From IMG/VR virus record IMGVR_UViG_3300004806_000016: a stretch of 64,000 nucleotides of DNA; one strand, given 5' to 3'. Below are positions 19,573-61,712 of the stretch, one piece after another. How positions within the stretch are numbered: the first letter of the stretch is position 1; each line of letters opens with the position of its first letter. This DNA comes from a virus. Position numbers and translations under genes: made by a program. Under the pieces are notes generated by a model. It did not search any database, was not told the origin of the DNA, and worked only from the letters and a program-made list of their open reading frames with translations.

Positions 19573-19708
19573 CAATCCTGCAGATAATCCAGGACGTGTT
19601 ACAATAAAATTTGATACGGAGCAACAATGCCAAAAGGCGAAAGGCTCTATGGAATACTGGTTAAAATTTGATCAATTTAAAGTTATATCTGAATGCAAAA
19701 GATCCTAA
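19538..19708 (+). CDS. 56-aa exported/membrane peptide (not in ORF track)
   Basis: GGAG RBS; MWVLIILAV hydrophobic start; two Cys. Confidence 0.5.
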   Translation: MWVLIILAVHINNPADNPGRVTIKFDTEQQCQKAKGSMEYWLKFDQFKVISECKRS

Positions 19709-20772
19709 TAGTAACAGATTGTTATGAGCCATCTATCAATGGTGTAGTGACAACTCTCAAAAATATAAAGAAACAGGCTGAGTTGGACGGATACAAAGTA
19801 TTGATCGTCGAGCCATCATTGTTTCATAATTTCAGTTCTATGATCTATCCAGATATTCGTATATCTATTCCTTTCAGTTTTACTAAGATGGTTGATGAGT
19901 TTCAGCCAGATTTTATTCATATTGCCACAGAAGGTGTGCTTGGTGTAACAGCTCTAAACTATTGTGCGAAACGTAATTATAATTTTACGACTGCGTTTCA
20001 CACAAAATGGGGTGAGTTTTTAAATAGCATACTCCATATACCAGTAAGCTGGACTAATACATGGCTCCGCAGATTCCATAGAGATAAAATAGTATTCTGC
20101 ACCTCTAAATCTATGATTGAATACTTGACAAATAACAAGATTGGAGGTAAACTTATAAATTGGTCGAGGGGAGTAGATACAGACATATTTGGCCCACCAA
20201 GACTGATGAAAAACCAGACCAATACTTTTATAAAGCCAAGAAATCTGTTGACAGTGAATAGAATTAGCAAAGAAAAGAATCTGGATGCATTCTGTCAGCT
20301 ATCAACTTTCCTATATAACCTTACCGTCGTAGGCGATGGTCCTTATCTAAAAGAACTAAAGAAAAAATACCCAAAGGTAAAATTTACTGGAGCTCTGGTT
20401 GGTGAAGAGTTAGCTGCTGCCTATAGAGAAGCTGACTGTTTTGTGTTTCCTAGTAAGAATGATACGTTTGGTGTTGTGATTATTGAGGCGCAGATGTTGG
20501 GAACGCCAGTCGCTGCTTATCCCGTGACTGGGCCAATTGATATTATTAAAGATGGAATAAATGGAATTACACACAAAAGTTTAGAATTTGCTGTGAGAAA
20601 AGCATTAACGCTTGACAGGAAGACTGTTTACGAGTATACTTATGAAAATTACTCTTGGAAGAGCGTCTGGAATACATTTAAAGAAAATATGGTAGGAGTA
20701 GAAAAAAATGATAACAAGCCCAATCCTAGTGACGAAACGAGATGGAACGAAAGAACCGATAGATCTCAATAA
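19693..20772 (+). CDS. GT4 glycosyltransferase (Agt-like glycolipid synthase)
   Basis: VTD...INGVVTTL, IHIATEG.LG, RGVD, RISKEKN and FPS..DTFG.V..EA...GTPVAAYP motifs. Confidence 0.85.
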   Translation: MQKILIVTDCYEPSINGVVTTLKNIKKQAELDGYKVLIVEPSLFHNFSSMIYPDIRISIPFSFTKMVDEFQPDFIHIATEGVLGVTALNYCAKRNYNFTTAFHTKWGEFLNSILHIPVSWTNTWLRRFHRDKIVFCTSKSMIEYLTNNKIGGKLINWSRGVDTDIFGPPRLMKNQTNTFIKPRNLLTVNRISKEKNLDAFCQLSTFLYNLTVVGDGPYLKELKKKYPKVKFTGALVGEELAAAYREADCFVFPSKNDTFGVVIIEAQMLGTPVAAYPVTGPIDIIKDGINGITHKSLEFAVRKALTLDRKTVYEYTYENYSWKSVWNTFKENMVGVEKNDNKPNPSDETRWNERTDRSQ

Positions 20773-25753: not shown

Positions 25754-26160
25754 GCTATGACAATCCGTGGTTTTATAACGGAGTTGTAGTTGATTCGGAA
25801 ATACTTGAAGAATACTTAGGATTCGTATATAAGATAACCAATCTGGCCAGCCAGAAGAAGTATATTGGTAAAAAGTTACTCAAGAGAACCAAGACCAGAC
25901 AGGTCAAGGGTAAAAAGAAACGCACTCTCGTTGAGTCGGATTGGAAAGACTATTACGGTTCTAATAAAGAATTACAGGAAGATGTGATAAATCTCGGCGC
26001 ACACAATTTTAAGAGAGAGATCATAAGGTTTTGTAAGACTAAAGGCGAGTGTAATTATTTTGAAGCGAAACAGCAATTTTTGCTTGACGTTTTAGAAAAT
26101 ACGGAGTATTATAATTCCTGGATAAGTGTTAAAGTACACAGAAAACATTTGCCCACGTGA
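25750..26160 (+). CDS. denA: GIY-YIG endonuclease II-like
   Basis: GFVYKITN...KKYIGKK, YYGS and YYN motifs. Confidence 0.75.
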   Translation: MSYDNPWFYNGVVVDSEILEEYLGFVYKITNLASQKKYIGKKLLKRTKTRQVKGKKKRTLVESDWKDYYGSNKELQEDVINLGAHNFKREIIRFCKTKGECNYFEAKQQFLLDVLENTEYYNSWISVKVHRKHLPT

Positions 26161-26227
26161 CGTAATAGGTAACCGTATCGGACTTAAAATCCGAGTTCTG
26201 GGAGTTCGAGTCTCCCCGTGGGCACCA
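26151..26227 (+). tRNA. tRNA-Leu (anticodon TAA), short variable loop
   Basis: Acceptor stem GCCCACG/CGTGGGC; anticodon arm TCGGA-CTTAAAA-TCCGA; T arm GGGAG-TTCGAGT-CTCCC; encoded CCA. Confidence 0.9.
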
Positions 26228-27972: not shown

Positions 27973-29220
27973 ATGCCTGGAGTAATAAGCAAAAAGGGTA
28001 AAAAGAACCCAAAGCTAATTAAAGTCTTGACTAAGAGAGCAAGACAACTGATGAACGATAATCGTTTCAAAGTCAGAATGGCAACTATCAACAGAGTTCC
28101 TATCAATAAGAAATTTGATATTCCCTATCTAGCAGGTTATTCTAAAGACGGCAAGACAGTATACATTGACCGTCATCTTAAGACAATATTTCAGGGTGTT
28201 GATATATCTCAGTTCCTTCGCATACATGAGATAGCAGAAAAGACACTACTAGATTTAGATCATCTTACATATCAAGAAGCCCACCATATCGCTACACATC
28301 TAGAGCGCATGGCTGTTGAAAAGGTAGGTCTTAACTGGGAAAAATATACAAAATTCCTAGAACCATACATTAAGAGAGTCCATGGTGAAGATTTAAAGAT
28401 AGTTCCTAAAGATTTAGATCTTGAGCCATACGCCGATGAACATGATCCTATCCTCAGAAATCTTATGAAGAAGGAAGGCGTAAGGGATATTAAAGCCAGA
28501 ACGGTCAGAGAATCAATAGGACTTGATGAAGTCAAGATCAGCCTAGAATATCATGACGAGCTGAATCCTGTTCTGTGGGATGGTTTTAAATTAAAGCCAG
28601 AAGTAAGAAACAAACTGATGGAATTTGCGAAGGCATGGGCCAGTTTCGCGAAAATACCACTTGACATTATACAGGATATCATTATAATAGGTGGTAATGT
28701 TAATTATAACTACACATCTAAATCAGACATAGACGTCCATCTTATCCTTGATCGCGATCAGCTGGGCCAAAACAGAGAGATGGTTGATGAATATCTCCAA
28801 GACAAGAAAGTCCTATGGACTCTCACACATAAGGTGTCTGTACTCGGATACCCAATCGAACCCTATGCGCAAGACTCACATGCAAGTTATCCCCGTGGTC
28901 AAGGCGTCTACAGTATCAAACGAAACACGTGGGTTCAATACCCTCCTCGCGGGAAATACGACTTTAAGAACGATCCAGCTCTAAAGAGAAAAGTCTTATT
29001 CTATAAGAGACTGATCGATACCATCATCAAAGATAAGATGGATGTTGGTGCTGTTAGAGATCTAAAGGCAAAGTTGAGAGATATGCGTGCTGCTTCTATT
29101 GCCGATGGTGGTGAGTTTGGTTTCGAGAATCTAGTGTTCAAGGAACTAAGGAACCGTGGTTATCTTGATAAGATGAACAAATATGAATTAACAATGAAAG
29201 ATCAGGAGTTGAGTTTATGA
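27973..29220 (+). CDS. Pol-beta-superfamily nucleotidyltransferase with extra N-terminal domain
   Basis: IIGGNVNYNY...SDIDVH, IEPYAQD and GEFGFENLVFKELR motifs; TATAAATA at 27926. Confidence 0.75.
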   Translation: MPGVISKKGKKNPKLIKVLTKRARQLMNDNRFKVRMATINRVPINKKFDIPYLAGYSKDGKTVYIDRHLKTIFQGVDISQFLRIHEIAEKTLLDLDHLTYQEAHHIATHLERMAVEKVGLNWEKYTKFLEPYIKRVHGEDLKIVPKDLDLEPYADEHDPILRNLMKKEGVRDIKARTVRESIGLDEVKISLEYHDELNPVLWDGFKLKPEVRNKLMEFAKAWASFAKIPLDIIQDIIIIGGNVNYNYTSKSDIDVHLILDRDQLGQNREMVDEYLQDKKVLWTLTHKVSVLGYPIEPYAQDSHASYPRGQGVYSIKRNTWVQYPPRGKYDFKNDPALKRKVLFYKRLIDTIIKDKMDVGAVRDLKAKLRDMRAASIADGGEFGFENLVFKELRNRGYLDKMNKYELTMKDQELSL

Positions 29221-29317
29221 TGCTACTCGAGACTATGGTAATTAAAGATATGTGGGAACGAGGATTTAATCCTTGCTTTCAGTCAGATATCGAACTATAC
29301 TGGAAGGAGTTGTTAGG

Positions 29318-29572
29318 ATGATTGAGATTTACAGCAAACCAAACTGCCCATACTGCACTAAAGCAAAACAACTTCTTCGTACCATGGATATTCCTTTCAA
29401 TGAATATAAACTGGATGAAGATTTTACCCGTGAGATCGTGTTGGAAAAGTTTCCTAATGCTAAATCTTACCCAATCGTAGTCGTTGATGGTTTCCATATC
29501 GGTGGTTACAGTCAACTAGCAGAAAAGATCAATTCTGAAACTAATGACAATCGTAAACTCTTAGCTGAATAA
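29318..29572 (+). CDS. nrdC: Glutaredoxin
   Basis: CPYC, SYP and IGGY motifs. Confidence 0.9.
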   Translation: MIEIYSKPNCPYCTKAKQLLRTMDIPFNEYKLDEDFTREIVLEKFPNAKSYPIVVVDGFHIGGYSQLAEKINSETNDNRKLLAE

Positions 29573-29853: not shown

Positions 29854-30131
29854 TGACAAAAATTGTTATGGTTGATGTGCTTACGAGTTTTCGTAATCGT
29901 TATGCTGTTGAATTGAATGATGAAGACCCAGCCGAGTGGGCTGTGGATACTGTCGTTTGTGAGATGCATGATGTAAAACTCACAGAATTCAGCCAATATC
30001 ACATTGGTGATCAGGTAATGTCTCATAGAGAGATTACTAAAGAAGAATATCTCCGTATGTTTGACGAAGATAATGATTATCTAAAGGATTGGACTGAGAA
30101 ACAAAAACTCTCATTCATCAACAATAAATAA
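29853..30131 (+). CDS. Hypothetical protein
   Basis: EFSQ.HIG...FD.DNDYL..W motif. Confidence 0.65.
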   Translation: MTKIVMVDVLTSFRNRYAVELNDEDPAEWAVDTVVCEMHDVKLTEFSQYHIGDQVMSHREITKEEYLRMFDEDNDYLKDWTEKQKLSFINNK

Positions 30132-30164
30132 TGTTTTTCAACACTCTTAAGGAGGTCAAATGAA

Positions 30165-30530
30165 ATGAGCGATTACTGGGGTTTTCACCTTATCTTAGAC
30201 GCATCTGGCTGTGATCATGATGCTATTACCTCTCACGATAACATCTATAATTTTGTTAAACAGCTAGTGACTGATATTGATATGGTTGCCTATGGTGAAC
30301 CTCAGATTATCAATTTTGGTTCAGGAAATAAAGCAGGATACACTCTCGTTCAATTGATTGAGACCAGTAATATCTGCGCCCATTTCGTCAACGAACATAA
30401 TCATATGTATCTTGACGTTTTCTCCTGTAAGACTTTTGACCCAGAAGTTGTTATTAGACTTGTTGCTGAATATTTCAAGTCAACAAACTATAATACAGCT
30501 TTCATTGAAAGGCAAGCGCCAAACACATGA
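30165..30530 (+). CDS. speD: S-adenosylmethionine decarboxylase proenzyme
   Basis: G.HLILD, LIETSNI..H (self-cleavage Ser) and YLDVFSC motifs. Confidence 0.85.
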   Translation: MSDYWGFHLILDASGCDHDAITSHDNIYNFVKQLVTDIDMVAYGEPQIINFGSGNKAGYTLVQLIETSNICAHFVNEHNHMYLDVFSCKTFDPEVVIRLVAEYFKSTNYNTAFIERQAPNT

Positions 30531-30955
30531 TAACAGGATTTACTTGTGGAGCCTTTGATCTTTTGCATCCAGGGCATATTGCTATGTTGAAAGACTGTAA
30601 GAGTCAGTGTGATTGGCTTATCGTTGGCCTTCACACTGACCCAACAATAGATAGACCAGAAAAAAATAAACCTATACAGACTGTGTTCGAGAGATGGATG
30701 CAGTTAGATTCATGCGTTCATGTTGATTATATCATTCCTTATGATACTGAACACGACCTAATAAATATGATGGCGACGCTAGATATCAACAAGAGATTTG
30801 TCGGAATAGATCATCAGCTGGATGTTATAACAGGCCAATCTATATGCGATAGGCGTGGTATAGAAATTATATACAATGAAAGAAATCATGATTACAGTTC
30901 AAGTGAATTGAGGAGCAGAATACGTAATGACACACGTCGAAGAATATTTTTCTGA
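30527..30955 (+). CDS. HIGH-family sugar-phosphate nucleotidylyltransferase (TagD/HldC-like)
   Basis: GAFDLLHPGH, LIVGL and R.HDYSSSELR motifs. Confidence 0.85.
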   Translation: MITGFTCGAFDLLHPGHIAMLKDCKSQCDWLIVGLHTDPTIDRPEKNKPIQTVFERWMQLDSCVHVDYIIPYDTEHDLINMMATLDINKRFVGIDHQLDVITGQSICDRRGIEIIYNERNHDYSSSELRSRIRNDTRRRIFF

Positions 30956-31514
30956 AGTTGCTCGCATCGGCGAGTTGATCGATAAACAAAAGATAGAGAG
31001 TTTTGCCAATGCCCTGCGCACCACCCGTGACATTTCGAATGGACGAGTATTTGTTCTCGGCGTGGGTGGGTCTGCTGGCAATGCATCCCATATGGTTAAT
31101 GACCTGCGAAAACTCTGCGGCATCGAGGCTTATGCTCCAACAGACAATGTTAGCGAACTCTCTGCTCGCACAAACGATGAAGGGTTTGATACAGTATTCA
31201 TCGAGTATCTACGCACCTCACGGTTTACACAAGGAGACACAGTAATTGTTCTCTCTGTTGGTGGTGGTAGCGTTGAGCGTAACGTATCTGTTGGTCTTAT
31301 TAAGGCAATTGATTACGCACATAAAATGGAGGGTTGCGTACTTTCGATTGTGGGTAAAGAAGATGGCTACGCTGCTACAAAGTCTGACCTAGCAGTCGTT
31401 GTTCCCCCAGTAAATCCAGATAGAATTACACCACATAGTGAAGCGTTCCAGGCTGTCGTCTGGCATTGTGTAGTTTCACATCCTGAATTGCAAATGAGAA
31501 AAACAAAATGGTAA
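30927..31514 (+). CDS. gmhA: Sedoheptulose-7-phosphate isomerase (SIS)
   Basis: GVGGSAGNASH, RTND.G, SVGGGS and HSEAFQ...H motifs. Confidence 0.85.
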   Translation: MTHVEEYFSEVARIGELIDKQKIESFANALRTTRDISNGRVFVLGVGGSAGNASHMVNDLRKLCGIEAYAPTDNVSELSARTNDEGFDTVFIEYLRTSRFTQGDTVIVLSVGGGSVERNVSVGLIKAIDYAHKMEGCVLSIVGKEDGYAATKSDLAVVVPPVNPDRITPHSEAFQAVVWHCVVSHPELQMRKTKW

Positions 31515-32065
31515 AAGCAGTATTTTTTGATAAAGACGGTGTATTGAATAAGCTAGTCAAGCGGCCAACTAAGATGACTGCTCCCTGGACTATTGAAGAG
31601 TTGGAGTTCAACTGGCAGTCAAAAGCAGCAGTTAATCTCGTAAAGAAATATGGTTGGAAGACGTTTATGATTACCAATCAGCCAGATTTCTCCGACGAAG
31701 ATCCAACAGAAGGTACGGATATCGCAGATCTGTTCGCTATTATGCAGTGTACTCTGTCTTATTTTAGGTTTGATGGGTTTGACTATTGCACCGAGAGAAG
31801 CTCAGATCATTATAAACCAGCAACAGGAATGGTTGATGATATTGCCAAAGAACATGATATTGATCTGAAACATAGCATCATGATTGGTGATAGCTGGCGC
31901 GATATGGTTCTGGCTTACAAGTGCGGAATGAAGAGCTACTATATAGGTAGTAAAGAAGATATAGATTTCTGGCCAGAAGAATGGCGTAATGTAAGACCAG
32001 ATTATTTCGTCAATAATGTATATGCTGCTTGTAATCATATCGTAAACGGTGGAGCTATGGAATGA
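31508..32065 (+). CDS. gmhB: Heptose-1,7-bisphosphate phosphatase (HAD IIIA)
   Basis: FFDKDGVLN, ITNQPD, KP..GM and IGDSWRD motifs. Confidence 0.85.
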   Translation: MVKAVFFDKDGVLNKLVKRPTKMTAPWTIEELEFNWQSKAAVNLVKKYGWKTFMITNQPDFSDEDPTEGTDIADLFAIMQCTLSYFRFDGFDYCTERSSDHYKPATGMVDDIAKEHDIDLKHSIMIGDSWRDMVLAYKCGMKSYYIGSKEDIDFWPEEWRNVRPDYFVNNVYAACNHIVNGGAME

Positions 32066-32793
32066 AACTATTTGCTGATGGTGCTGACTTTGATGGTATT
32101 ATTGAGGCGGCAAAGGATCTCGAGATTAAAGGATTCACGACTAATCCTACATTGATGCGTAAAGCAGGTGTAACTGATTATGTTAAATTCTCTCAGAGTC
32201 TAATTGAATACCTATACAATAAGAGACCAGACACTTGCTTGAGTCTTGAGGTATTCGCTGATGATAATGAGGGAATGATTCGTCAAGCCAGAGAGATTGA
32301 CTCTTGGTCTGATGAATATCCAGTGTATGTTAAGATTCCTGTAATGAATACGAAAGGCGAATCAACAGAAGAAGTAATCTCTGTATTGTCTAATGAAGGA
32401 ATCAAGCTCAACGTAACAGCAGTGTTTACTATCGATCAGGTACGGGATATCGTGAAGTGTATCACTAAAGATACCCCAACTATCATCTCTGTGTTTGCTG
32501 GACGTATTGCTGACTTGGGTCATAATCCAATCCACATCATGGAAGAAGCAATACAGATTATTGACGCTGGTCTACGCAATTATCCAAACAAGACTACTGA
32601 ATTGCTATGGGCCAGCCCACGCGAGGCATATAATTATATTGAAGCATCTAATATTGGTTGTGATATTATTACGATGACACCTGACCTAATTAAGAAGGTA
32701 AAGGGTTTCCGTTCTAAGTCACTAGAGCAGTTCTCAAAAGAAACGGTTCAAATGTTTTGTAATGATGCGGTGGCAAGTGGATTTAAAATATAA
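32062..32793 (+). CDS. tal: Transaldolase (TalC/FSA-size)
   Basis: FADGA, GFTTNPTL, YVKIP, NVTAVF, SVFAGRIAD and LLWAS.R motifs. Confidence 0.9.
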   Translation: MKLFADGADFDGIIEAAKDLEIKGFTTNPTLMRKAGVTDYVKFSQSLIEYLYNKRPDTCLSLEVFADDNEGMIRQAREIDSWSDEYPVYVKIPVMNTKGESTEEVISVLSNEGIKLNVTAVFTIDQVRDIVKCITKDTPTIISVFAGRIADLGHNPIHIMEEAIQIIDAGLRNYPNKTTELLWASPREAYNYIEASNIGCDIITMTPDLIKKVKGFRSKSLEQFSKETVQMFCNDAVASGFKI

Positions 32794-33550
32794 AAAAGCA
32801 CTCGTAACAGGTGGTACTCGCGGACTCGGTAAAGTTGTTGCTGAGTTGTTTACGTCAAAGGGTATTGATGTCGTAACCTGTTCTAGAGGAAAACAGGATA
32901 CACCAAATCATTACCAGTGTGATGTATCCAGTGCTTGGACTGTATCTAGGATGATTAAAGATCATCAAGATCTAGATATTATCGTCTGTAACGCTGGTAT
33001 ATATGGGCCGATTGGGCCACTAGAAACTATCAAACCAGACAACTGGAAACAGACCATAGAAGTCAATCTAATGGGTGTTGTTAATGTGTGTCGGTTTGCC
33101 GTTCCCATCTTAAAAGCAAATGGTAAGGGTAAGATCATCATCCTATCGGGTGGTGGTGCTACTCAACCCATGCCTAATTTCTCAGCGTATGCAGCATCAA
33201 AGGCAGCTGTCGTTAGATTCGGCGAGACACTAGCAGAAGAGCTGAGGGAATTTAACATTGATGTTAATTGTGTTGCTCCAGGATCATTGAATACTGACTT
33301 TATGGAACAGGCAATTGCCGCTGGCCCAGAGCTAGCGGGTCAGTCATTTTATGATAGGATGATAAAGCAACAACAAGAGGGTGGTGCTGATATCAATATA
33401 GCTGCTGAGTTGTGTTACTTCCTAGCATCAGAACAGAGTGATGGATTAACAGGTAAATTAGTAGCAGCCCAGTGGGACGACTGGAAAAATATGGATAAAT
33501 ACAATACGACTGGTGATTTATATACATTAAGAAGAGTGAATAAACAATGA
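32762..33550 (+). CDS. SDR-family oxidoreductase
   Basis: TGGTRGLG, NAG and YAASK motifs. Confidence 0.9.
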   Translation: MMRWQVDLKYKKALVTGGTRGLGKVVAELFTSKGIDVVTCSRGKQDTPNHYQCDVSSAWTVSRMIKDHQDLDIIVCNAGIYGPIGPLETIKPDNWKQTIEVNLMGVVNVCRFAVPILKANGKGKIIILSGGGATQPMPNFSAYAASKAAVVRFGETLAEELREFNIDVNCVAPGSLNTDFMEQAIAAGPELAGQSFYDRMIKQQQEGGADINIAAELCYFLASEQSDGLTGKLVAAQWDDWKNMDKYNTTGDLYTLRRVNKQ

Positions 33551-34527
33551 ATATAGCTATAGTAGGATGTGGCCTTGTAGGTAACAAGAGAGCAAAACAA
33601 CTGGCTGGTTGTAAGTTAGTTGCCGTCCACGATATAAACAAACAAAAATGCATTGACTTAATTTCCGCAACAGGTTATACTGATTGTGTGATAGAAAACG
33701 ACTGGAAGAATGCCGTTACCCGAAACGATGTTGATGTTGTCATCGTTGCTACAATGCATAATATGTTAGCAGAGATTACGATCGCAGCATTAGAAGCAGG
33801 TAAACATGTATTGGTTGAGAAGCCAGTCGGTAAAGATATTGAAGACATCAACAATATCATCCTAGCAGCAGATAAAGCTGGTAAGATGGTTCGTGTTGGT
33901 TTCAATCATCGCTACCATCCTGCTATGATGAAAGCAACCAAGCTGATCGAACAGGGATACATTGGTGATATCATGTATATCCGTGCTCGCTACGGGCATG
34001 GTGGTCGCGTAGGATACAACAAAGAATGGCGTGGTGACCCTAAGTTGGCTGGCGGTGGTGAGCTGGTCGAACAGGGTATTCATATCATTGACCTCGCTCA
34101 GAAGTTCTTGGGTAAATTTACTGATGTAAAGGGTTTCGCCGAGACATTCTATTGGGATCAGGTGTTGGATGATAATGCTTTCCTAACACTGCGTAACGAT
34201 AAGAAACAGACAGCATTCATTCATGTAAGCTGTACCGAATGGAAGAATACCTTCTCGTTTGAGATCTACGGCAAGAAGGGTAAGCTAGAAGTCAATGGTC
34301 TTGGCGGTAGCTACGGTATTGAGACTCTCAAGTATTATGAAGTCAGACCAGAGATGGGCCCACCACATACAACTATCTGGGAATACCCACAGGAAGATAA
34401 GTCTTGGGAACAAGAGATCATCGAATTTATGGAAGATATTAGAACTAACAGAACACCAGAAGCAGGACTACAGAGTGCTAGGAATGCTTGGGAAGTAATC
34501 AACATAATCTATGGAGCAAGTAAATAA
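33547..34527 (+). CDS. Gfo/Idh/MocA oxidoreductase
   Basis: GCGLVG, GKHVLVEKP and GGG...QG.H..D motifs. Confidence 0.9.
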   Translation: MNIAIVGCGLVGNKRAKQLAGCKLVAVHDINKQKCIDLISATGYTDCVIENDWKNAVTRNDVDVVIVATMHNMLAEITIAALEAGKHVLVEKPVGKDIEDINNIILAADKAGKMVRVGFNHRYHPAMMKATKLIEQGYIGDIMYIRARYGHGGRVGYNKEWRGDPKLAGGGELVEQGIHIIDLAQKFLGKFTDVKGFAETFYWDQVLDDNAFLTLRNDKKQTAFIHVSCTEWKNTFSFEIYGKKGKLEVNGLGGSYGIETLKYYEVRPEMGPPHTTIWEYPQEDKSWEQEIIEFMEDIRTNRTPEAGLQSARNAWEVINIIYGASK

Positions 34528-35135
34528 TGGCTATCGAGAAAAGATTATTGTTAACAAGATTGGCTAACTGCCCTGTGCTTAATCTTGGTGAATACACATA
34601 TGGTATGCCGCAAGGATTGGTGTTAGAATTTGGCGTTCACGTTGGTAATACTATCAGAGCAATCTCTCATTTTACTGATCGACCAGTGTTTGGCTTCGAT
34701 TCCTTTGAGGGATTGCCAGAAGATTGGTCTGGTGCTGGTGGTGTAAAGAAAGGCCATTTCGCCTGTGAGATCCCAGAAAATCTCAGACACAATGTGGTTC
34801 TTGTAAAGGGTTGGTTCGAGGATACACTGGGCCCATTCTGTAAGGCAATGAACCATAACAAAGTTGCTTTCGTTCATATTGACTGCGACATTTACTCTGG
34901 TGCTAAGACTATCTTTGGTGAGTTGACCAAGGCAGATATGTGGCAAGATGGTAGCGTTATTGTATTTGATGAGATTGCTGGCTATCCTGGATGGGAAGAA
35001 GGCGAGTTCAAAGCATTCAATGAGTTTCTTGATGCTACTGGTTGGAGATGGAAACTGTTAGGTATTCATGGCGGTAACAGAGCAGACCTAGACCAAGGTG
35101 GTGAAGTTAAGTGTGCCTTTAAGATCTTTAAGTGA
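34527..35135 (+). CDS. TylF/MycF-like sugar O-methyltransferase
   Basis: LEFGV..G, GFDSFEGLP, GWFEDTL, HIDCDIY and FDE motifs. Confidence 0.8.
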   Translation: MAIEKRLLLTRLANCPVLNLGEYTYGMPQGLVLEFGVHVGNTIRAISHFTDRPVFGFDSFEGLPEDWSGAGGVKKGHFACEIPENLRHNVVLVKGWFEDTLGPFCKAMNHNKVAFVHIDCDIYSGAKTIFGELTKADMWQDGSVIVFDEIAGYPGWEEGEFKAFNEFLDATGWRWKLLGIHGGNRADLDQGGEVKCAFKIFK

Positions 35136-35142
35136 GAGTAAA

Positions 35143-36171
35143 ATGGAAAATAACTTTGATCTAATAGAACAGAATGAAGCAGGTAAGAATGCAAACGGCG
35201 GAACCGAACTATTCATGCGGTTCCTCTATGGTGGTAGAATTCCTCGTGAGTTGTTAGTCAATACTCAGATTATACCTGGACGTATCAGAGAATTAGATTC
35301 GTCAAAGATTCGCGTATTAACATTACATGATCTACCAGAAGATCCTGAATGTCAGAAACTGAAGGACGCTCATTTCCGTAAGAAATTTCATAAGATAGTA
35401 TTCATCTCAAACTGGCAGTATCAACGGTTCAGAGATATTTTACGTGTTCCCTATTCAACAGAACATACTGTTATTGAAAATGGTTTAGAGCCAATAGATG
35501 TTGATATTGATAAGAAACCAGATGTTGATGATGTCGTTAATATCTGTTACATTACTACACCTCATCGTGGCCTAGAACTATTGGTACCGATGTTTGAGAT
35601 GTTAGCCAAGGAAGATAAGAAGATACACCTACACGTTCACTCTTCCTTCAATATGTATGGCTGGCCCGATGCTGATAAGCCATACGAAAAACTATTTGAT
35701 ACATGTAAGAGTCACCCACAGATTACATATCACGGATATACTGAGTTCAACCAACTTAGAGGGATGATGAAAGACTATCATATCTGTGCCTATCCTTCTA
35801 TCTGGGAAGAGACTGCCTGTCGTTCTATCCTAGAAGCAATGAGTGCTGGTATGTTGTGCGTTCATCCTAACTTTGGTGCATTGTTTGATACGACTGGCGG
35901 CATGAATTTTATGTATGATGGTTCTGCTGATAAGAGACAACATGCTGATATGTTTGGCGAACACCTCTATTCTGCTATCATGGCTGTTAGAACTAAGTCT
36001 GATGCTGTTCGTTCTCGTCTGTTGTTTAACAAGTCATATGTTGATACACGCTATCATCCTGACCTAGCAATCAGCCGCTGGAACAGAATGCTTGGTGATC
36101 TAAACGATAAGTATGATACACCAGAAAAGAGAAAACTAGAAACACAAATGTTCTCATACAAGGTAGGATAA
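35143..36171 (+). CDS. GT-B (GT4-like) glycosyltransferase
   Basis: GGTE, TP.RGL and YPSIWEETAC....EAM.AG motifs. Confidence 0.85.
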   Translation: MENNFDLIEQNEAGKNANGGTELFMRFLYGGRIPRELLVNTQIIPGRIRELDSSKIRVLTLHDLPEDPECQKLKDAHFRKKFHKIVFISNWQYQRFRDILRVPYSTEHTVIENGLEPIDVDIDKKPDVDDVVNICYITTPHRGLELLVPMFEMLAKEDKKIHLHVHSSFNMYGWPDADKPYEKLFDTCKSHPQITYHGYTEFNQLRGMMKDYHICAYPSIWEETACRSILEAMSAGMLCVHPNFGALFDTTGGMNFMYDGSADKRQHADMFGEHLYSAIMAVRTKSDAVRSRLLFNKSYVDTRYHPDLAISRWNRMLGDLNDKYDTPEKRKLETQMFSYKVG

Positions 36172-37157
36172 TGATCTTAACAAAGACTCCATTACGTATC
36201 AGTTTCTTCAGCGGTGGCAGCGATCTGCCATCGTTTTATTCTAAGGAAGATGGTGCTGCTCTCTCTGTTACTATAAGCAAATACATCTATGTCATGGTTC
36301 ATAAGACACCTCACCTCGGTGTTAAAGTGATGTACGATCAGATTGAAGAATTTCCTGATGTTGAGGCAATGCAAACAAACATTACCAGCGAGACATTGAA
36401 GTACTTCAACATTGAGAAAGAAATAACAGTAGCATCTATATCTGATATTCTATCTAAGGGATCAGGTCTAGGATCATCATCTGCTTTTACCGTTGGTCTG
36501 ATTAATGCATTATCAGCAAGTAAATGGGGTGTTGCCTCTAATGGTTACCTAGCAGATATTGCCTGCGAGATAGAGATGAATAGATGTAACTATCCCGTAG
36601 GAAAACAAGACCAGTATGCTGCTGCTTATGGTGGGCTGAACCTATTTCGTTTTAGAAAAAATGGTGAGGTATCAGTAGACCATACAAATGTTTCCCTTTC
36701 TACCCTAGGCAAATTAGAATCAAATCTAATGCTAGTATATAGTGGAAAGGGCAGATCAGCAAATAGTATCTTACAGAAACAATCAGCAGCAATGAGTGAT
36801 GCTGATAAGTTCAATCTAGTAAGACGTAGCAGAGACAAAGCATTTACTGGTCTTGAATACCTGCGCAATGGTGATGTTGACTCTTTTGGTGACCTATTAC
36901 ATGAGGCATGGCTAGATAAGAAAGGAGTAGTCAGCGAGATAACACAAGACTACTTCGATGACGTGTATCAAAATATAAGAATAGCTGGAGCAATTGGTGG
37001 TAAACTACTTGGTGCTGGCGGTGGTGGTTTCTTTATATTCTATGTTACTCCTGATAAACAAGAGCATGTCAGACATCATATTGAAAACTATACTTCATGT
37101 AAAGTGTATGACTTCAAATTCACTGATCGTGGATCCCAAATAGTTTCAATTTGCTAA
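36171..37157 (+). CDS. hddA: GHMP kinase, D-glycero-alpha-D-manno-heptose-7-phosphate kinase-like
   Basis: TPLRISF..GGSD, GSGLGSS, GKQDQY and GGKLLGAGGGG motifs. Confidence 0.85.
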   Translation: MILTKTPLRISFFSGGSDLPSFYSKEDGAALSVTISKYIYVMVHKTPHLGVKVMYDQIEEFPDVEAMQTNITSETLKYFNIEKEITVASISDILSKGSGLGSSSAFTVGLINALSASKWGVASNGYLADIACEIEMNRCNYPVGKQDQYAAAYGGLNLFRFRKNGEVSVDHTNVSLSTLGKLESNLMLVYSGKGRSANSILQKQSAAMSDADKFNLVRRSRDKAFTGLEYLRNGDVDSFGDLLHEAWLDKKGVVSEITQDYFDDVYQNIRIAGAIGGKLLGAGGGGFFIFYVTPDKQEHVRHHIENYTSCKVYDFKFTDRGSQIVSIC

Positions 37158-37213
37158 ATAATAGTGCTTGACTTATTACGAGAAAAGCATTATTATAATC
37201 ATAGGTAAAACAT

Positions 37214-55060: not shown

Positions 55061-55214
55061 TATGATTCCTAGCTGGTATAAAATCTACACACGCATCATT
55101 GACAATACTATAAAGATAGTTTGGTTGATATTACTGATAACATGGCTGCTTGATGGCGCCAAATTGCTTGTAAAATAACTTGACTTTTTACCCAATGTAG
55201 GCTATAAATAATAT

Positions 55215-55530
55215 GCGATGGTCGTTGACGTTATACGGCATAAGCACACTGGACTCGGGGGCGGTACCCGACGCCTCCACCATAGATACATGGTGCTGTT
55301 ACCAATTAAGGTGTAAGGATGCCATCAAAAAGAACGTACAGCTCCGTTCTGGCAAATCGTCATCATGTATCTTTGCTGGGGGCGAAATAGGATCGACAGG
55401 TGTGATAAAGGTATTACTGAGATCATAGCAAACGTCATAGATGCAAACGATAATGCACCTATCGCTATGGCACTAGCTGCCTAAGCATGAGCTTTTGGTA
55501 GTTTTGGCTTGGAAACAGAACAAAACTACC
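55215..55530 (+). ncRNA. ssrA: Two-piece (circularly permuted) tmRNA
   Basis: Acceptor piece ends ...TCGGG-GGCGGTA-CCCGA-CGCCTCC-ACCA (55282). Coding piece starts GGGGGCGAAATAGGATCGAC (55378), giving the G3-U pair. Tag ANDNAPIAMALAA at 55443-55484; 3' hairpin at 55497-55530. Confidence 0.93.
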
Positions 55531-55531
55531 G

Positions 55532-55987
55532 TCAATAACAACTTCGTTGATGTAATACTAATCCATTAACTGAAATTATTTTTTTACAATTCAAACAACA
55601 TACCTTTTTTTGTTGTTTTCCTTGCATTGGATTTTTACCATTTCGGCTTTGTTCTTTTCTTTTTTCTATTAAATGTTCTTTCATTCCAGGCATTTTCCAC
55701 ATATTTAATATTTTATTTTTTTGTTGTTCTTTATTTTTAGGTAATTTATTCATATGCCAAGAATTTCTTTTACCATTTTCCGACATGGTTAACGATATAA
55801 TTTTTTCTTTATCTATCATTTTAGATAAACCAAGCCAAGCAATTCTATCGTATTCATTACCATGTTGTTCCCATAATTTTTTGTGCGCTTCTGCGTGCTC
55901 TTCTACAGTTAAAAGAACAATATTAGATGGATCGTCCGATCCACCAGCGTGTTTAGGAATTATGTGATGTTTGTGATAAATAACCAT
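55532..55987 (-). mobile_element. Free-standing HNH homing endonuclease
   Basis: HHIIPKHAGGSD..SN...LT..EH..AH motif, NPM.GK and a C-terminal Cys motif; AT-rich; opposite strand; own TATAAATA. Confidence 0.85.
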
Positions 55988-56364: not shown

Positions 56365-56441
56365 GGTCTCTTAGCTCAGCAGGATAGAGCAACAGCCTTC
56401 TAAGCTGTGGGTCGCTGGTTCGAATCCAGCAGAGATCGCCA
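56365..56441 (+). tRNA. tRNA-Arg (anticodon TCT)
   Basis: Canonical cloverleaf; ACAGC-CTTCTAA-GCTGT; CCA end. Confidence 0.95.
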
Positions 56442-58717: not shown

Positions 58718-61712
58718 ATGCTGCCATTCCGAACAGATCTTTGAGACGTTTCGCTGCATCAGCAGGTTCAACCATACCAACATTATCTTTATCAAATCTA
58801 GCATTACCTTCTTTACCAGATGCCGGAGCCTGACCACCACTGTTAGATGGAGCTTCAGCAGCAATATTTTTATCAGCCGATCTCTGACTTGCTATGTCGT
58901 TAGAAGATGCTTTGGCTAAATCGGCACCAGTAGACGGAGCTGCAGGAGTCGGAGTACCACCACCGCCACCACTGGCCGCTTCGCTTCTCATTCCGCTGCC
59001 ACCACCCTTGGCTGGTTTTGCACCACTACCACTATCTTCCTTCTTGGCTTGTGGTGGAGTAGCTGTATCTGGACCTCCTGAGCCGACTGGGTCTTTACTC
59101 TTATCTTCTTTCTTTCCGCCCTGATCACCACCGCCACCACCACTGGCTGCAGTACCCTCAACTTCACCAGCAGCTATGGATCCATTTCTTGGGATATCAA
59201 ATGTTCCCTGTTCGCCTTTCGCAGCAGAAAAATGCATAGGATCTTTGACGGATTTCCAATTCATACCCCAACCAAGACCCCACTTAGCAGCAAGCGCACC
59301 AGTCTCTGCTGGTAGATCTGTCTTTGTTGACTTGTTTGGATTTGATCCAGGATTGATATCGATAGCAGCACCAGATGCGTGGTAACTCTTTACGCTTGGG
59401 TTGTTTACGTTTGCACGATCAGCATAACCACCTATGCTACTAATCTTATAACCCGTGGCCTCAAGATCACTAATGAATCCTTGGAAGTTCTTAGCATAAG
59501 CACCAGCAACCTGTACCGACTTGCCGCTAGCAGTTTTTACGTTTACAAGATTTGGTTTTGATACAGGACCACCAACACCCTTACTTGCTCCACCTATTGC
59601 TGCAGGACCACCAGCAGCACCACCAGATCCTTGACCGCCACCAGCTCCAGATGGCATCGATACTGAAGGGCTACCAGAAGGGCCAGCACCAGTAGCAGCA
59701 GTAGCAGATTTTGCTACTGATTCTTTAACTGCATCAGCTCTCTGCATAACAACTGCAGCGCCAGAACCACCACCTCCGCCAGAAGGTTTGCCAGCTCCTA
59801 CAGGACTGGGTGGGCCCATCTCTTGTGCTTTTGATACATCTGCACTCTTGGCTGCTCCAGCAGCAGGAGCTTGTGTAGTTGGTGTTGAAGTGAATATGAT
59901 CTTATCTGCTTTAAGGATAATTGTATCAGCTTCAAATGTTAGTTCTTTTTGTCTCTTTTGTTTTTCAGCATCAGCGTCATCTTCTTGTTTTCTTTCAACA
60001 GCAGCCTGACGTTCTGCCATGATAGCAGAAGAAATATCGGGCATATTATCGTTGGAAGAAACAATTTGTGGTGTGTTTTGTTTTGTGGCAACAATTGGTG
60101 CTTCAGATTTTACTGGTCCTGCAGCTTCTGGTTCTGGTTTAATGTCGCCTTTGTCTTCAAGATTATTTCTACCAGCCTGTTGTTGATCTTCTGGTAATTC
60201 TTTATCTTCTTCATCTTTTTGCGATGAGAATTCTTTCCACCAATTATATACTTCATATGCTAGCGCCAAAGAACCTAAAACATTTATAGCAGTCCACACC
60301 CATCCTGGGCCTGGTAATGCTAGACCAGCGAGAGCACTACCTGCTCTGACCATAAATCTTCTAAACACAGATGGTGCAGTCTTTTCTAAGAATGTTAAGA
60401 ATTTAGACCATTTGCTTACGCCTTGTGTCGCTGCATTACTTGCAGCTCCAGCAACTTTGGTTGCTACAGCACCAGCACCTTCGGCGACAGCTCCCGCAGC
60501 TTTTGTTGCTATTGAGCCAGCTCCTTCTACTACTGCACCTGCAGCTTTAGAAGCGCCACTTAATACTCCTTTACCAGCGCTCATTAGACCGCTACCAGCA
60601 GAGCCTGCGATATCCATAGCGCCACCAGCAAGTTTACTTAATAATCCTGGACCTTCTTCTTTCTTGGCTTGTGGCTGCTGTTGTGGTTTTGTTGATGTAA
60701 GATGATCAGCTATATCTTTTAGATACCCATTTGCTGTATCTATCTTATCACCATTACGGCTTATCGCCTCTTCTATTTTTTCCATAGAAAGGCTCTGGCT
60801 TACGCCACTCTTAGAAACAGCCTCTCCGTCTTGTTTTTCGGATGAACGAATCTTTTCGCCGTTCTGTCCAAGACCTAATTTCTCAGCTTCTTTTCTAGAG
60901 ATAAATTGACCGCCACCAACACCCTTGTGCGTATCGGCCCACATACCAGCTTTTTCTCTGAACTCATATCTCTCTCTTTCAGGGACGATTGGTTCGGTAA
61001 CAGCTGGTTTTGCATCAGGTTTTTTATCTTGGTTAGATTTTAACATATCTCTGAGCAGCTGATTCGTCATCATCTGCTGTTCGACTATCGCCTTAGAAAA
61101 AGACTCAGTCGATTCAGACATACCACCGCCTGATTTGTTTTCGGCTTTTGGTTTATTTTCTTCTCTTTTTTGAACTAATCCTTTTAGGCCAGGAAATGCT
61201 TTTACGAATAGATCATCACCAATATCTTTGACTGCACCACCAATAGATTTAGTTATAGATTTTGTTAGTTCTTTTAATTCTCTAACGACTTCAGGTTCTT
61301 CTGTACCAAAACCATCTCTCTTTTTTACATCCTGTTTAGACGCAACTTTTAGTTCTTTTACTAGACCCTTTACTTCTTCAAAGAATGGGCGAGTCGGACC
61401 ATAGCTTACACCATAGTCAGCATTCTGTTTCATTTCTTTGGTTTCAGTTTTTGATGTAGTTGTCTGTTTTTGTAACTTGACCTGCTCTTTTGTAAGGCTG
61501 ATCAGTTCTTTTAGAGCATCATTAGTCTTTTTTTGCTCTTTCTTGAGCTCAGAAACTTCTTTTGTGGTCTTTACAGATTCTTTAGCAACTTCTTTCGCGG
61601 AATCTTTATTCTGTTTAGATATGTCAAGCTGTTCCTGCGCAGTTCTTGCTATATCAGGATTATTAGTCTGCTGTAAGAGTCTCTTTAGATCGTCGTCTGT
61701 AAAATTAGCCAT
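58716..61712 (-). CDS. Tape-measure/baseplate-hub-like protein with an M15 peptidoglycan peptidase domain
   Basis: Helical N-terminus, Ala/Gly repeats, a TM-like segment, and SYHASGAAIDIN...WG..W....DPMHF. Confidence 0.7.
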   Translation of the reverse strand: MANFTDDDLKRLLQQTNNPDIARTAQEQLDISKQNKDSAKEVAKESVKTTKEVSELKKEQKKTNDALKELISLTKEQVKLQKQTTTSKTETKEMKQNADYGVSYGPTRPFFEEVKGLVKELKVASKQDVKKRDGFGTEEPEVVRELKELTKSITKSIGGAVKDIGDDLFVKAFPGLKGLVQKREENKPKAENKSGGGMSESTESFSKAIVEQQMMTNQLLRDMLKSNQDKKPDAKPAVTEPIVPERERYEFREKAGMWADTHKGVGGGQFISRKEAEKLGLGQNGEKIRSSEKQDGEAVSKSGVSQSLSMEKIEEAISRNGDKIDTANGYLKDIADHLTSTKPQQQPQAKKEEGPGLLSKLAGGAMDIAGSAGSGLMSAGKGVLSGASKAAGAVVEGAGSIATKAAGAVAEGAGAVATKVAGAASNAATQGVSKWSKFLTFLEKTAPSVFRRFMVRAGSALAGLALPGPGWVWTAINVLGSLALAYEVYNWWKEFSSQKDEEDKELPEDQQQAGRNNLEDKGDIKPEPEAAGPVKSEAPIVATKQNTPQIVSSNDNMPDISSAIMAERQAAVERKQEDDADAEKQKRQKELTFEADTIILKADKIIFTSTPTTQAPAAGAAKSADVSKAQEMGPPSPVGAGKPSGGGGGSGAAVVMQRADAVKESVAKSATAATGAGPSGSPSVSMPSGAGGGQGSGGAAGGPAAIGGASKGVGGPVSKPNLVNVKTASGKSVQVAGAYAKNFQGFISDLEATGYKISSIGGYADRANVNNPSVKSYHASGAAIDINPGSNPNKSTKTDLPAETGALAAKWGLGWGMNWKSVKDPMHFSAAKGEQGTFDIPRNGSIAAGEVEGTAASGGGGGDQGGKKEDKSKDPVGSGGPDTATPPQAKKEDSGSGAKPAKGGGSGMRSEAASGGGGGTPTPAAPSTGADLAKASSNDIASQRSADKNIAAEAPSNSGGQAPASGKEGNARFDKDNVGMVEPADAAKRLKDLFGMAA

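Follow-up and report, generated by a model that had tools for sequence, protein, structure and literature searches.

The question raised by the virus record IMGVR_UViG_3300004806_000016 (64,000 nucleotides; "the window" below means this whole stretch) is whether ten tightly packed genes at 30165-37157 form one pathway for an activated sugar and, if they do, which sugar would be made and onto what it would be transferred. Phage sugar-activation pathways have recently been found behind DNA hypermodifications that defeat restriction and CRISPR systems. An earlier note on this DNA, made from the sequence alone, had proposed that the phage builds an epimerised, O-methylated heptose and transfers it to its DNA, its virion proteins or the host surface. 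On balance we lean towards reading the block as a self-contained operon that would build and transfer an activated higher-carbon sugar. The cassette is probably a phage-encoded sugar-nucleotide pathway feeding a phage transferase, novel in its enzyme pairing and probably also in its sugar chemistry.

A ten-gene block with the enzymes of a proposed sugar-activation relay

The window belongs to an uncultured freshwater phage of the T4-like kind, with ribonucleotide reductase, a gp61-type primase (~43% identical to Kyanoviridae), an RNase H-like exonuclease, PhoH, two tRNAs and one tmRNA. The block, which had no nucleotide match among 50,697 phage records (megablast), lies within the replication/nucleotide-metabolism module; the earlier note had placed it among core replication genes. 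Its ten open reading frames (ORFs), all on the plus strand, fill the interval with junctions that are either 1-32 nt overlaps or 7 nt gaps, a packing of the kind expected if translation were coupled. Searches against Pfam, NCBIfam and PHROGs returned the same ten identities that the earlier note had given:

30165..30530, plus strand: SpeD-like pyruvoyl decarboxylase (PF02675, 82 bits; phrog_3125)
30527..30955, plus strand: HIGH-motif (cytidylyltransferase-fold) nucleotidyltransferase (PF01467; HPGH motif; phrog_7878, 118 bits)
30927..31514, plus strand: SIS-domain ketose-phosphate isomerase, GmhA-like (all PDB matches are phosphoheptose isomerases, best 41 bits)
31508..32065, plus strand: HAD-IIIA phosphatase, GmhB-like (HAD-IIIA and GmhB models)
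32062..32793, plus strand: transaldolase, Staphylococcus type (TIGR02134, 275 bits)
32762..33550, plus strand: classical short-chain dehydrogenase/reductase (SDR), 262 aa, FabG type (PF00106, 140 bits)
33547..34527, plus strand: Gfo/Idh/MocA oxidoreductase, hereafter Gfo (family search; NCBIfam and PDB matches)
34527..35135, plus strand: TylF/Methyltransf_24 S-adenosylmethionine-dependent methyltransferase (family searches)
35143..36171, plus strand: GT-B, GT4-type (retaining) glycosyltransferase (PF00534, PF13692)
36171..37157, plus strand: HddA-like GHMP sugar-phosphate C1 kinase (PDB 3k85, 130 bits)

The transferase ORF opens at a GTG at 35098; its homologues favour the ATG at 35143. Most family scores fall well under the curated NCBIfam equivalog cut-offs, and we therefore regard the block enzymes as distant family members and not as orthologues of studied enzymes.

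From the family assignments and the gene order, the following relay can be proposed. The transaldolase would supply sedoheptulose-7-phosphate, which the GmhA-like isomerase would convert to D-glycero-D-manno-heptose-7-phosphate. The HddA-like kinase would then phosphorylate C1 in the alpha configuration, and the GmhB-like enzyme is predicted to take the terminal phosphate off the resulting 1,7-bisphosphate, at position 7. The HIGH-motif nucleotidyltransferase, standing in for cellular HddC, would form the nucleoside diphosphate (NDP)-heptose, plausibly from CTP, and the retaining GT4 transferase would move the sugar onto its acceptor. In the window phage only, the Gfo dehydrogenase and the SDR reductase would probably invert one ring hydroxyl, most likely at C3, and the TylF-type enzyme would probably O-methylate the sugar. 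Supplied from the pentose-phosphate pathway, such a cassette should work in hosts that make no heptose.

The kinase is paired with an unusual nucleotidyltransferase

Much of this relay resembles the GDP-D-glycero-alpha-D-manno-heptose pathway of capsule and S-layer clusters (GmhA/HddA/GmhB/HddC), with which the cassette has in common the isomerase, the GHMP C1 kinase and the HAD-IIIA 7-phosphatase. The best solved relatives of the kinase are the Bacteroides thetaiotaomicron protein 3k85, WcbL (4usk) and Campylobacter jejuni HddA (4n3o), the last two at ~114 bits, and its bacterial homologues are ~40% identical; the GSGLGSSSA GHMP motif is invariant in the kinase alignment. The cassette differs from that pathway by its HIGH-motif enzyme in the place of the GT-A HddC, its built-in transaldolase, and its phage transferase and tailoring genes.

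To place the pairing, a profile built from the kinase alignment was run over one genome per prokaryotic species and gave 80 loci, of which 79 were kept as cellular. The one removed (L054; JBBARF010000123.1, assigned to a 'Bacteriovoracaceae' metagenome-assembled genome, MAG) carries the cassette tail, the exonuclease and PhoH at 65-77% identity; it is a contig of phage origin that was binned with bacterial sequences. Of the cellular HddA-like loci, 57 have an HddC-type nucleotidyltransferase no more than 6 kb from the kinase, usually fused to a GmhB-like phosphatase, and just one, in a Pedosphaera sp. MAG (L060), has a HIGH-type enzyme within that distance. The enzyme of that MAG scores 46 bits against the phage profile, and the phage pairing may have its cellular counterpart, or its origin, in this locus. 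When the profile of cellular HddC-GmhB fusions was applied to the window and to 48 related viral loci (see below), it matched only phosphatase genes (91 bits for the window phosphatase, through the HAD half) and no HddC-type nucleotidyltransferase; likewise, none of five related contigs, of which two have a completeness of 98-100%, gave a match to PF00483. Since the HIGH-type enzyme occurs in 1 of 79 cellular loci and no HddC-type enzyme occurs in the viral ones, the combination that the earlier note had singled out as odd is both real and conserved. In terms of gene content, the phage lineage is one that appears to have replaced HddC with a cytidylyltransferase-fold enzyme. From a GHMP kinase working with such an enzyme one would expect a novel sugar nucleotide, either NDP-alpha-heptose or NDP-octose, and an activity new to the HIGH-motif family; if this is true, the NDP-sugar route would be one unknown in cells.

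In the nucleotidyltransferase itself, H14-x-G16-H17 and the segment R119-x-H121-x-x-S124-S125 are conserved across the alignment, and the motif H-x-(Y/W)-S-S-(T/S) is present in 13 of 13 aligned sequences (HDYSSS in the window). Its family profile, scored against the PDB, gave 54 for TagD, 46.5 for HldC and 88, over two domains, for Pcyt2, placing it about equally far from TagD, Pcyt2 and Burkholderia HldC. Its nucleotide, and even its substrate, are read from the genomic context, with CTP as a plausible choice.

A HIGH-motif nucleotidyltransferase of the RfaE-domain-II kind is also part of the ADP-L-glycero-beta-D-manno-heptose pathway (GmhA, HldE or HldA plus HldC, GmhB, HldD), and NDP-beta-heptose enzymes have been noted in viruses (Tang et al., PMC11573728). 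The rest of that pathway is of another make. None of the ten ORFs matches a PfkB-type kinase such as HldA or HldE, the sole kinase being of the GHMP type; there is no extended-SDR HldD epimerase among them, the only SDR being the classical 262-aa FabG type; and the partner of the ADP-heptose pathway is an inverting GT9 enzyme, that of the cassette a retaining GT4 enzyme. The STTR5 motif, (F/L)xxGRSTT with Arg at position 5, which marks NTP-promiscuous heptose enzymes (PMC11573728), is absent from the cassette nucleotidyltransferase, with Tyr or Trp where Arg is expected in all 13 aligned sequences.

The transferase was modelled with AlphaFold from a 22-sequence alignment (pLDDT, the model's confidence measure, 87) and adopts a GT-B fold. 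Its structural neighbours are HepE, sucrose-phosphate synthase, PimA, MshA, BshA and TarM (Z ~24-25; Foldseek, VIA-align). With two Rossmann domains in the GT-B arrangement and an E-x7-E motif in the C-terminal domain (E223 to E231) that is invariant in the 22 homologues, it has the features of GT4; its metagenomic relatives number more than 2,200. Sugar kinases of the GHMP family produce alpha-D-sugar 1-phosphates, and members of GT4 take alpha-linked donors and retain the configuration; to our knowledge, the alpha anomer is the product of every GHMP sugar kinase studied. The kinase and the transferase are therefore chemically consistent with each other, and a beta-specific, HldC-like step would not be consistent with them.

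A six-gene core is conserved in related phages

We then scanned IMG/VR with the kinase and obtained 48 viral loci (46-70% identity), indicating a widespread cassette, and mapped all window proteins onto them. One gene order is shared: glutaredoxin, one or two small genes, speD, nucleotidyltransferase, isomerase, phosphatase, transaldolase, transferase and kinase, followed 3' of the kinase by a small gene, the RNase H-like exonuclease, another gene and PhoH. The first of these genes, present in most related loci, would be the upstream anchor of the conserved synteny:

29273..29572, plus strand: glutaredoxin homologue (tblastn match to the genes annotated as glutaredoxin in phages DLP6 and Cr30)

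Within this frame, six genes make up a core at one syntenic site (nucleotidyltransferase, GmhA-like isomerase, GmhB-like phosphatase, transaldolase, GT4 transferase and HddA-like kinase), and in ~40 loci they stand in a fixed order with overlapping frames. The loci of one divergent group (L044-L046) contain just the nucleotidyltransferase, the transferase, a 96-aa ORF and the kinase, and in three loci (L022-L024) the nucleotidyltransferase is absent from its usual place.

The outer genes behave differently. speD is absent from one locus (L033), and in three others (L006, L019, L041) unrelated genes, a peroxiredoxin among them in L019, lie between it and the nucleotidyltransferase. On this synteny we rejected speD as a member of the sugar pathway, in which the earlier note had included it; it is separable and dispensable, and probably an adjacent auxiliary gene. 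The SDR and Gfo genes were found only in the window phage among the 48 related loci. The proposal of a ten-gene sugar operon thus survives in its central logic of isomerase, C1 kinase, phosphatase, nucleotidyltransferase and transferase, with speD standing outside the pathway and the SDR, Gfo and methyltransferase genes being lineage-specific additions to the six-gene core.

Outside these loci, the cultured phage Cr30 has the transferase, the kinase and a GmhA-like gene and lacks a transaldolase, and DLP6, phiM12, RHph and OC share with the cassette only the transferase and the synteny markers (tblastn). The methyltransferase of DLP6 proved unrelated (tblastn). Our literature search on Cr30 heptose genes and on phage GmhA auxiliary genes returned nothing specific. 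From these distributions we infer that the transferase may be an old syntenic gene, beside which supply genes were inserted later. Donor supply would have been added lineage by lineage, as kinase plus isomerase in Cr30 and, in the freshwater clade, as the complete relay including the transaldolase, and the oxidoreductases and methyltransferase would be a further addition in the window phage.

Predicted tailoring of the sugar

Three genes of the window phage point to modification of the sugar. The best NCBIfam matches of the Gfo protein are levoglucosan dehydrogenase and archaeal UDP-GlcNAc 3-dehydrogenase, and its best PDB matches are DgpA, levoglucosan dehydrogenase, glucuronide 3-dehydrogenase and KijD10. 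These nearest solved relatives oxidise C3 of sugars or glycosides, and the Gfo protein is predicted to be a sugar-ring (C3) dehydrogenase with the SDR as its predicted ketoreductase partner; oxidation followed by re-reduction, a net epimerisation, is the simplest reading of the pair. The methyltransferase has a sole, weak PDB match, CalS11, a TDP-rhamnose 3'-O-methyltransferase, and is predicted to be a sugar O-methyltransferase. By these nearest solved relatives, the epimerising pair and the methyltransferase proposed in the earlier note are plausible as sugar tailoring.

The same SDR-Gfo pair, with overlapping genes, is also found in archaea: at three loci, from Altiarchaeia, Nanoarchaeota and an unclassified archaeon, it adjoins genes for the kinase, the isomerase and the transaldolase, at 35-46% identity to the window proteins overall (SDR 35-39%, Gfo 43-46%). 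The pair can therefore be seen as a recurrent extension of the pathway. These loci also hold an HddC-GmhB fusion, an extended-SDR epimerase and a GT2 enzyme. Laid out in full, the archaeal MAG contigs (L111, L120, L128) carry HddC-GmhB, GHMP kinase, SIS isomerase, transaldolase, epimerase, in part a UDP-sugar dehydrogenase, SDR, Gfo and GT2, a cluster that looks like a heptose- or octose-type archaeal pathway resembling the lincosamide octose gene set.

The methyltransferase recurs among the phages themselves. TylF-type genes occupy four different positions across the relatives' cassettes: the gap between nucleotidyltransferase and isomerase (two unrelated insertions), the gap between transaldolase and transferase, the place before the nucleotidyltransferase and, as in the window, the place before the transferase. 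In addition, a 553-aa protein (P0021) on a 152,589 bp contig is a natural fusion of a cassette-type transferase with a TylF/Methyltransf_24 domain. Because methyltransferases have been recruited repeatedly and independently, sugar methylation appears to be a common end point of these cassettes, and O-methylated sugars a common product.

A heptose or an octose

Given such a pathway, we consider that the sugar is probably a heptose; an octose is a good deal less likely, and some other sugar would account for what is left. Three points weigh against the proposed relay. The GmhA-like isomerase, the nucleotidyltransferase and the kinase all score far under the curated cut-offs (50 bits against 209 in NCBIfam for the isomerase; 72 against 181.5 for the nucleotidyltransferase with TIGR02199, rfaE_dom_II; 142 against 600 for the kinase with NF049969). 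The nucleotidyltransferase is no nearer to HldC than to glycerol-3-phosphate or phosphoethanolamine cytidylyltransferases. Finally, a transaldolase would not be required for heptose where the host has a pentose-phosphate pathway.

The transaldolase is the gene on which the question turns. We rejected its identification as an ordinary cyanophage talC: it is of the Staphylococcus type and ~35% identical to cyanophage TalC. Because of this type and distance, and because it is the sole transaldolase (TAL_FSA) gene in each of five related contigs, in all of which it is located within the cassette, we take it as a dedicated member of the cassette. Near the kinase, a transaldolase was found in none of ~75 bacterial HddA-like loci and, among cellular loci, only in the three archaeal ones.

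An octose would be made by an enzyme chain one carbon longer, as in lincosamide biosynthesis. Here the transaldolase would join a C3 unit, from fructose-6-phosphate or sedoheptulose-7-phosphate, to ribose-5-phosphate, giving octulose-8-phosphate; the SIS enzyme would isomerise it, the GHMP kinase and HAD phosphatase would yield octose-1-phosphate, and the nucleotidyltransferase would form an NDP-octose to be tailored and transferred. Of the characterised pathways, only the lincosamide route is known to combine a transaldolase with an isomerase, a GHMP kinase, a HAD phosphatase and a nucleotidyltransferase, and it ends in dehydrogenase/oxidoreductase tailoring (PMC4351081, PMC12945683). By enzyme class, LmbR/LmbN/LmbP/LmbK/LmbO with LmbL/LmbZ/LmbM thus parallel the cassette, transaldolase and NAD(P)-dependent oxidoreductases included; they differ in a GT-A nucleotidyltransferase, in a product that goes into an antibiotic, and in having no such methyltransferase and no GT4 partner. 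An octose is further consistent with the transaldolase being retained in every full cassette and departing from the usual TalC, and with the archaeal loci that carry a transaldolase likewise carrying SDR-Gfo. The isomerases agree with this grouping: in the phosphate loop, those of the phages and the archaea have an insertion of six residues in common, and 32 of 34 bacterial GmhAs lack it.

Other observations speak against an octose. Cr30 has the transferase, kinase and GmhA-like gene without a transaldolase, and the nearest solved relatives of the kinase are heptose kinases. Two of the three archaeal genomes encode a transketolase, so sedoheptulose-7-phosphate can be made there and the comparison does not discriminate. 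A transaldolase that merely boosts the supply of sedoheptulose-7-phosphate fits the data equally well.

In the isomerase, all 21 phage sequences retain the catalytic His180 (E. coli numbering). At the place where an acidic residue was looked for (position 65 in E. coli numbering) stands Asp59, which agrees with the 34 GmhAs of HddA-linked bacterial loci. Four residues ahead of His180, at window position 175, all 21 phage proteins have Gln, as opposed to His in 32 of 34 bacterial and 3 of 3 archaeal homologues.

The acceptor

To what would the sugar be attached? The single most likely acceptor, tentatively, is a hydroxymethylated pyrimidine in the phage's own DNA, or a glycan already on it. The full proposal, in which an alpha-NDP-heptose (or -octose), epimerised and O-methylated, is placed on hydroxymethylated pyrimidines of the phage DNA, is possible and more doubtful than its acceptor taken singly. 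If it is true, no methylated sugar of this chain length would have been found on DNA before, and the whole route from central metabolites would be encoded by the phage.

Two published systems make the DNA reading attractive. In E. coli, a phage HAD/APH-like enzyme, a cytidylyltransferase and a GT-B transferase are necessary and sufficient to place one or two heptoses on 5-hydroxymethylcytosine (contig 53 cluster; bioRxiv 10.1101/2023.12.21.572611). Like the cassette, that cluster has a phage kinase and HAD phosphatase, a cytidylyltransferase-type nucleotidyltransferase and a GT-B transferase; its transferases, too, resemble BshA and MshA. It differs in its APH-like kinase fused to HAD, its position beside a C5-methyltransferase and a TET gene, and its use of E. 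coli heptose-7-phosphate; the cassette has a GHMP kinase, an added isomerase and transaldolase, and, in relatives, a distance of 20-90 kb to the TET/hydroxymethylase island. As heptosyl-5-hydroxymethylcytosine has already been reported there, the new DNA hypermodification put forward in the earlier note would not be wholly new.

The second system is the UDP-arabinofuranose pathway of RB69, DLP3 and HY126 (PMC13326640), which has a SIS isomerase, C1 kinase, GmhB-like HAD phosphatase, nucleotidyltransferase and GT4-like GT-B transferase as in the cassette. In the T4-like phages RB69 and DLP3, the relay of isomerase, kinase, GmhB-like phosphatase and nucleotidyltransferase serves solely to arabinosylate DNA (PMC13326640). 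It differs from the cassette in drawing a pentose from ribulose-5-phosphate, in a GT-A-type nucleotidyltransferase fused to the kinase, and in its target, 5-hydroxycytosine made by a thymidylate-synthase homologue (PMC13326640). The arabinosyltransferases and the cassette transferase have the same PDB look-alikes (3mbo, 2gej, 3c4v/3c4q, 6kih), and tblastn found no similarity between them at E <= 1e-5.

A hydroxymethylating enzyme is present in all five cassette genomes with enough coverage (G001, G002, G003, G006 and Cr30). The complete genome G001 encodes a T4 gp42 orthologue (285 bits), and the other four a Tet_JBP protein, which is also found in the transferase-bearing DLP6. Among six relatives without the cassette, only Melnitz has TET, and the association (5 of 5 against 1 of 6) has a one-sided Fisher p of 0.013, with no correction for shared ancestry. 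Two cultured phages make the acceptor question directly testable: Cr30, which has TET together with the transferase, the kinase and the GmhA-like gene, and DLP6, which has TET and the transferase.

The enzymes sit in a modification island that lies in the same place in relatives, between a MazG-like pyrophosphatase and the gp45 clamp (L134, G001:C1:93000-104000; L051 in G002; L136, Cr30 53000-67000). In G001, the island holds the T4 gp42-type dCMP hydroxymethylase with DUF1599 and dCMP deaminase, and in G002, G003, G006 and Cr30 a TET/JBP dioxygenase, as if one route to hydroxymethyl-pyrimidine had been exchanged for another. Next to these genes, several ORFs of 300-390 aa in the island have no Pfam match. 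In Cr30, Tet_JBP matches (77 bits) the gene at 59353-60681 (L136 6354-7682), which carries the annotation 'putative SNF2 DNA repair protein'; a few kb further downstream, the same block holds a gene for inositol-1-phosphate synthase.

Several observations count against DNA as the acceptor. The transferase looks like an old gene of the syntenic run glutaredoxin, transferase, RNase H and PhoH. In relatives, 20-90 kb separate the cassette from the TET/hydroxymethylase island, and the island has transferase-like ORFs of its own. Transferase and hydroxymethylase are thus not clustered (G001: cassette at ~1.5-5.7 kb, island at ~95-101 kb; G002: ~23 kb apart). Lone orthologous transferases, 36-42% identical and in the same synteny, occur in phiM12, phiN3, RHph_I1_18 and Ochrobactrum phage OC, none of which has Tet_JBP. 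Their thymidylate synthases were searched for the signatures of a 5-hydroxy-dCMP synthase (D169N) and of a hydroxymethylase (L143D/E, N177D); those of phiM12, phiN3 and RHph_I1_18 are canonical, keeping L143, D169 and N177, and OC has none. The cyanophages Bellamy and SynMITS9220M01 have heptose-type kinases and no TET or hydroxymethylase. Lastly, the transferase family is mildly acidic (pI ~6.1), which as a proxy for DNA binding is weak evidence. An hhalign comparison of the transferase profile with four unknown 300-390 aa ORFs of the G001 island gave no relationship (probability <=2%), and the Pfam models of the T4 beta- and alpha-glucosyltransferases produced only a 13-bit match, in G001, with the alpha model matching nowhere, so that this search was uninformative.

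The host envelope is a rather unlikely acceptor in our estimate. The transferase would then decorate the lipopolysaccharide (LPS) core or another glycolipid from the cytoplasmic face, and the altered surface during infection would serve superinfection exclusion or keep progeny off debris. This would agree with GT4 relatives that include LPS-core, lipid and teichoic-acid transferases (e.g., PimA, TarM), with relatives named LPS glucosyltransferases in JGI annotation, and with a likely early promoter upstream of the cassette (see below). It would also fit the orthologous transferases in phages without a hydroxymethyl-pyrimidine route and the cyanophage heptose-type clusters without TET or hydroxymethylase. 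Neither a membrane-anchoring segment nor a lipid-carrier enzyme is found in or beside the cassette, however; a strictly lytic T4-like phage has little time for surface remodelling, and the link to TET/hydroxymethylase in cassette genomes would have to be coincidence or shared ancestry.

A protein acceptor, whether in the capsid or tail of the virion or elsewhere among the proteins of phage and host, seems more unlikely again, with something else making up the remainder. The Ser-O-glycosyltransferases SdgB and GtfA are among the structural neighbours of the transferase, and its conservation over many T4-like phages of different hosts fits an acceptor supplied by the phage. The cassette nevertheless sits in the replication module, away from the structural genes, with no late promoter and no linked candidate acceptor gene.

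Very improbable, and already largely refuted by synteny, is the view that there is no single pathway and that unrelated auxiliary metabolic genes (speD, transaldolase, oxidoreductases) merely stand beside a small kinase/nucleotidyltransferase/transferase module: speD is indeed separable, transaldolase and speD are common stand-alone phage auxiliary genes, and L019 shows unrelated insertions in this very region, but the core order is fixed in ~40 loci with overlapping frames, its four activities form a textbook relay, and archaea independently link transaldolase, SDR and Gfo to the same kinase and isomerase.

Transcription signals and other features of the window

Two promoter-like sites flank the block:

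28661..28688, plus strand: sigma-70 consensus promoter-like site, TTGACA-16-TATAAT (12/12 matches), inside the ORF 27973-29220
37168..37196, plus strand: promoter-like site, TTGACT-17-TATTAT, just after the block

The former is the best promoter-like site in 14 kb and might drive early expression of the small genes that follow it and of the cassette; the latter may mark the start of the next transcription unit.

The earlier note had also taken a box at 30123 as a hint of late expression. The sequence AATAAATA does exist there. It matches 7 of the 8 positions of the T4 late box and overlaps the stop codon of the upstream ORF, and (N)ATAAATA was found before speD in 0 of 18 distinct related loci. 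Because the box spans a stop codon and is absent from these relatives, late expression is not supported, and no T4-type late promoter, that is, a TATAAATA box upstream of the unit and conserved in relatives, was found. Exact late boxes number 7 in the window, with 4.8 expected.

Elsewhere in the window, a second GT4-like glycosyltransferase gene lies at 19693-20772, directly upstream of nrdA, with a weak match to phrog_2170. ARAGORN predicts a permuted tmRNA (55189-55575; tag ANDNAPIAMALAA), a tRNA-Leu(taa) (26151-26227) and a tRNA-Arg(tct) (56365-56441).

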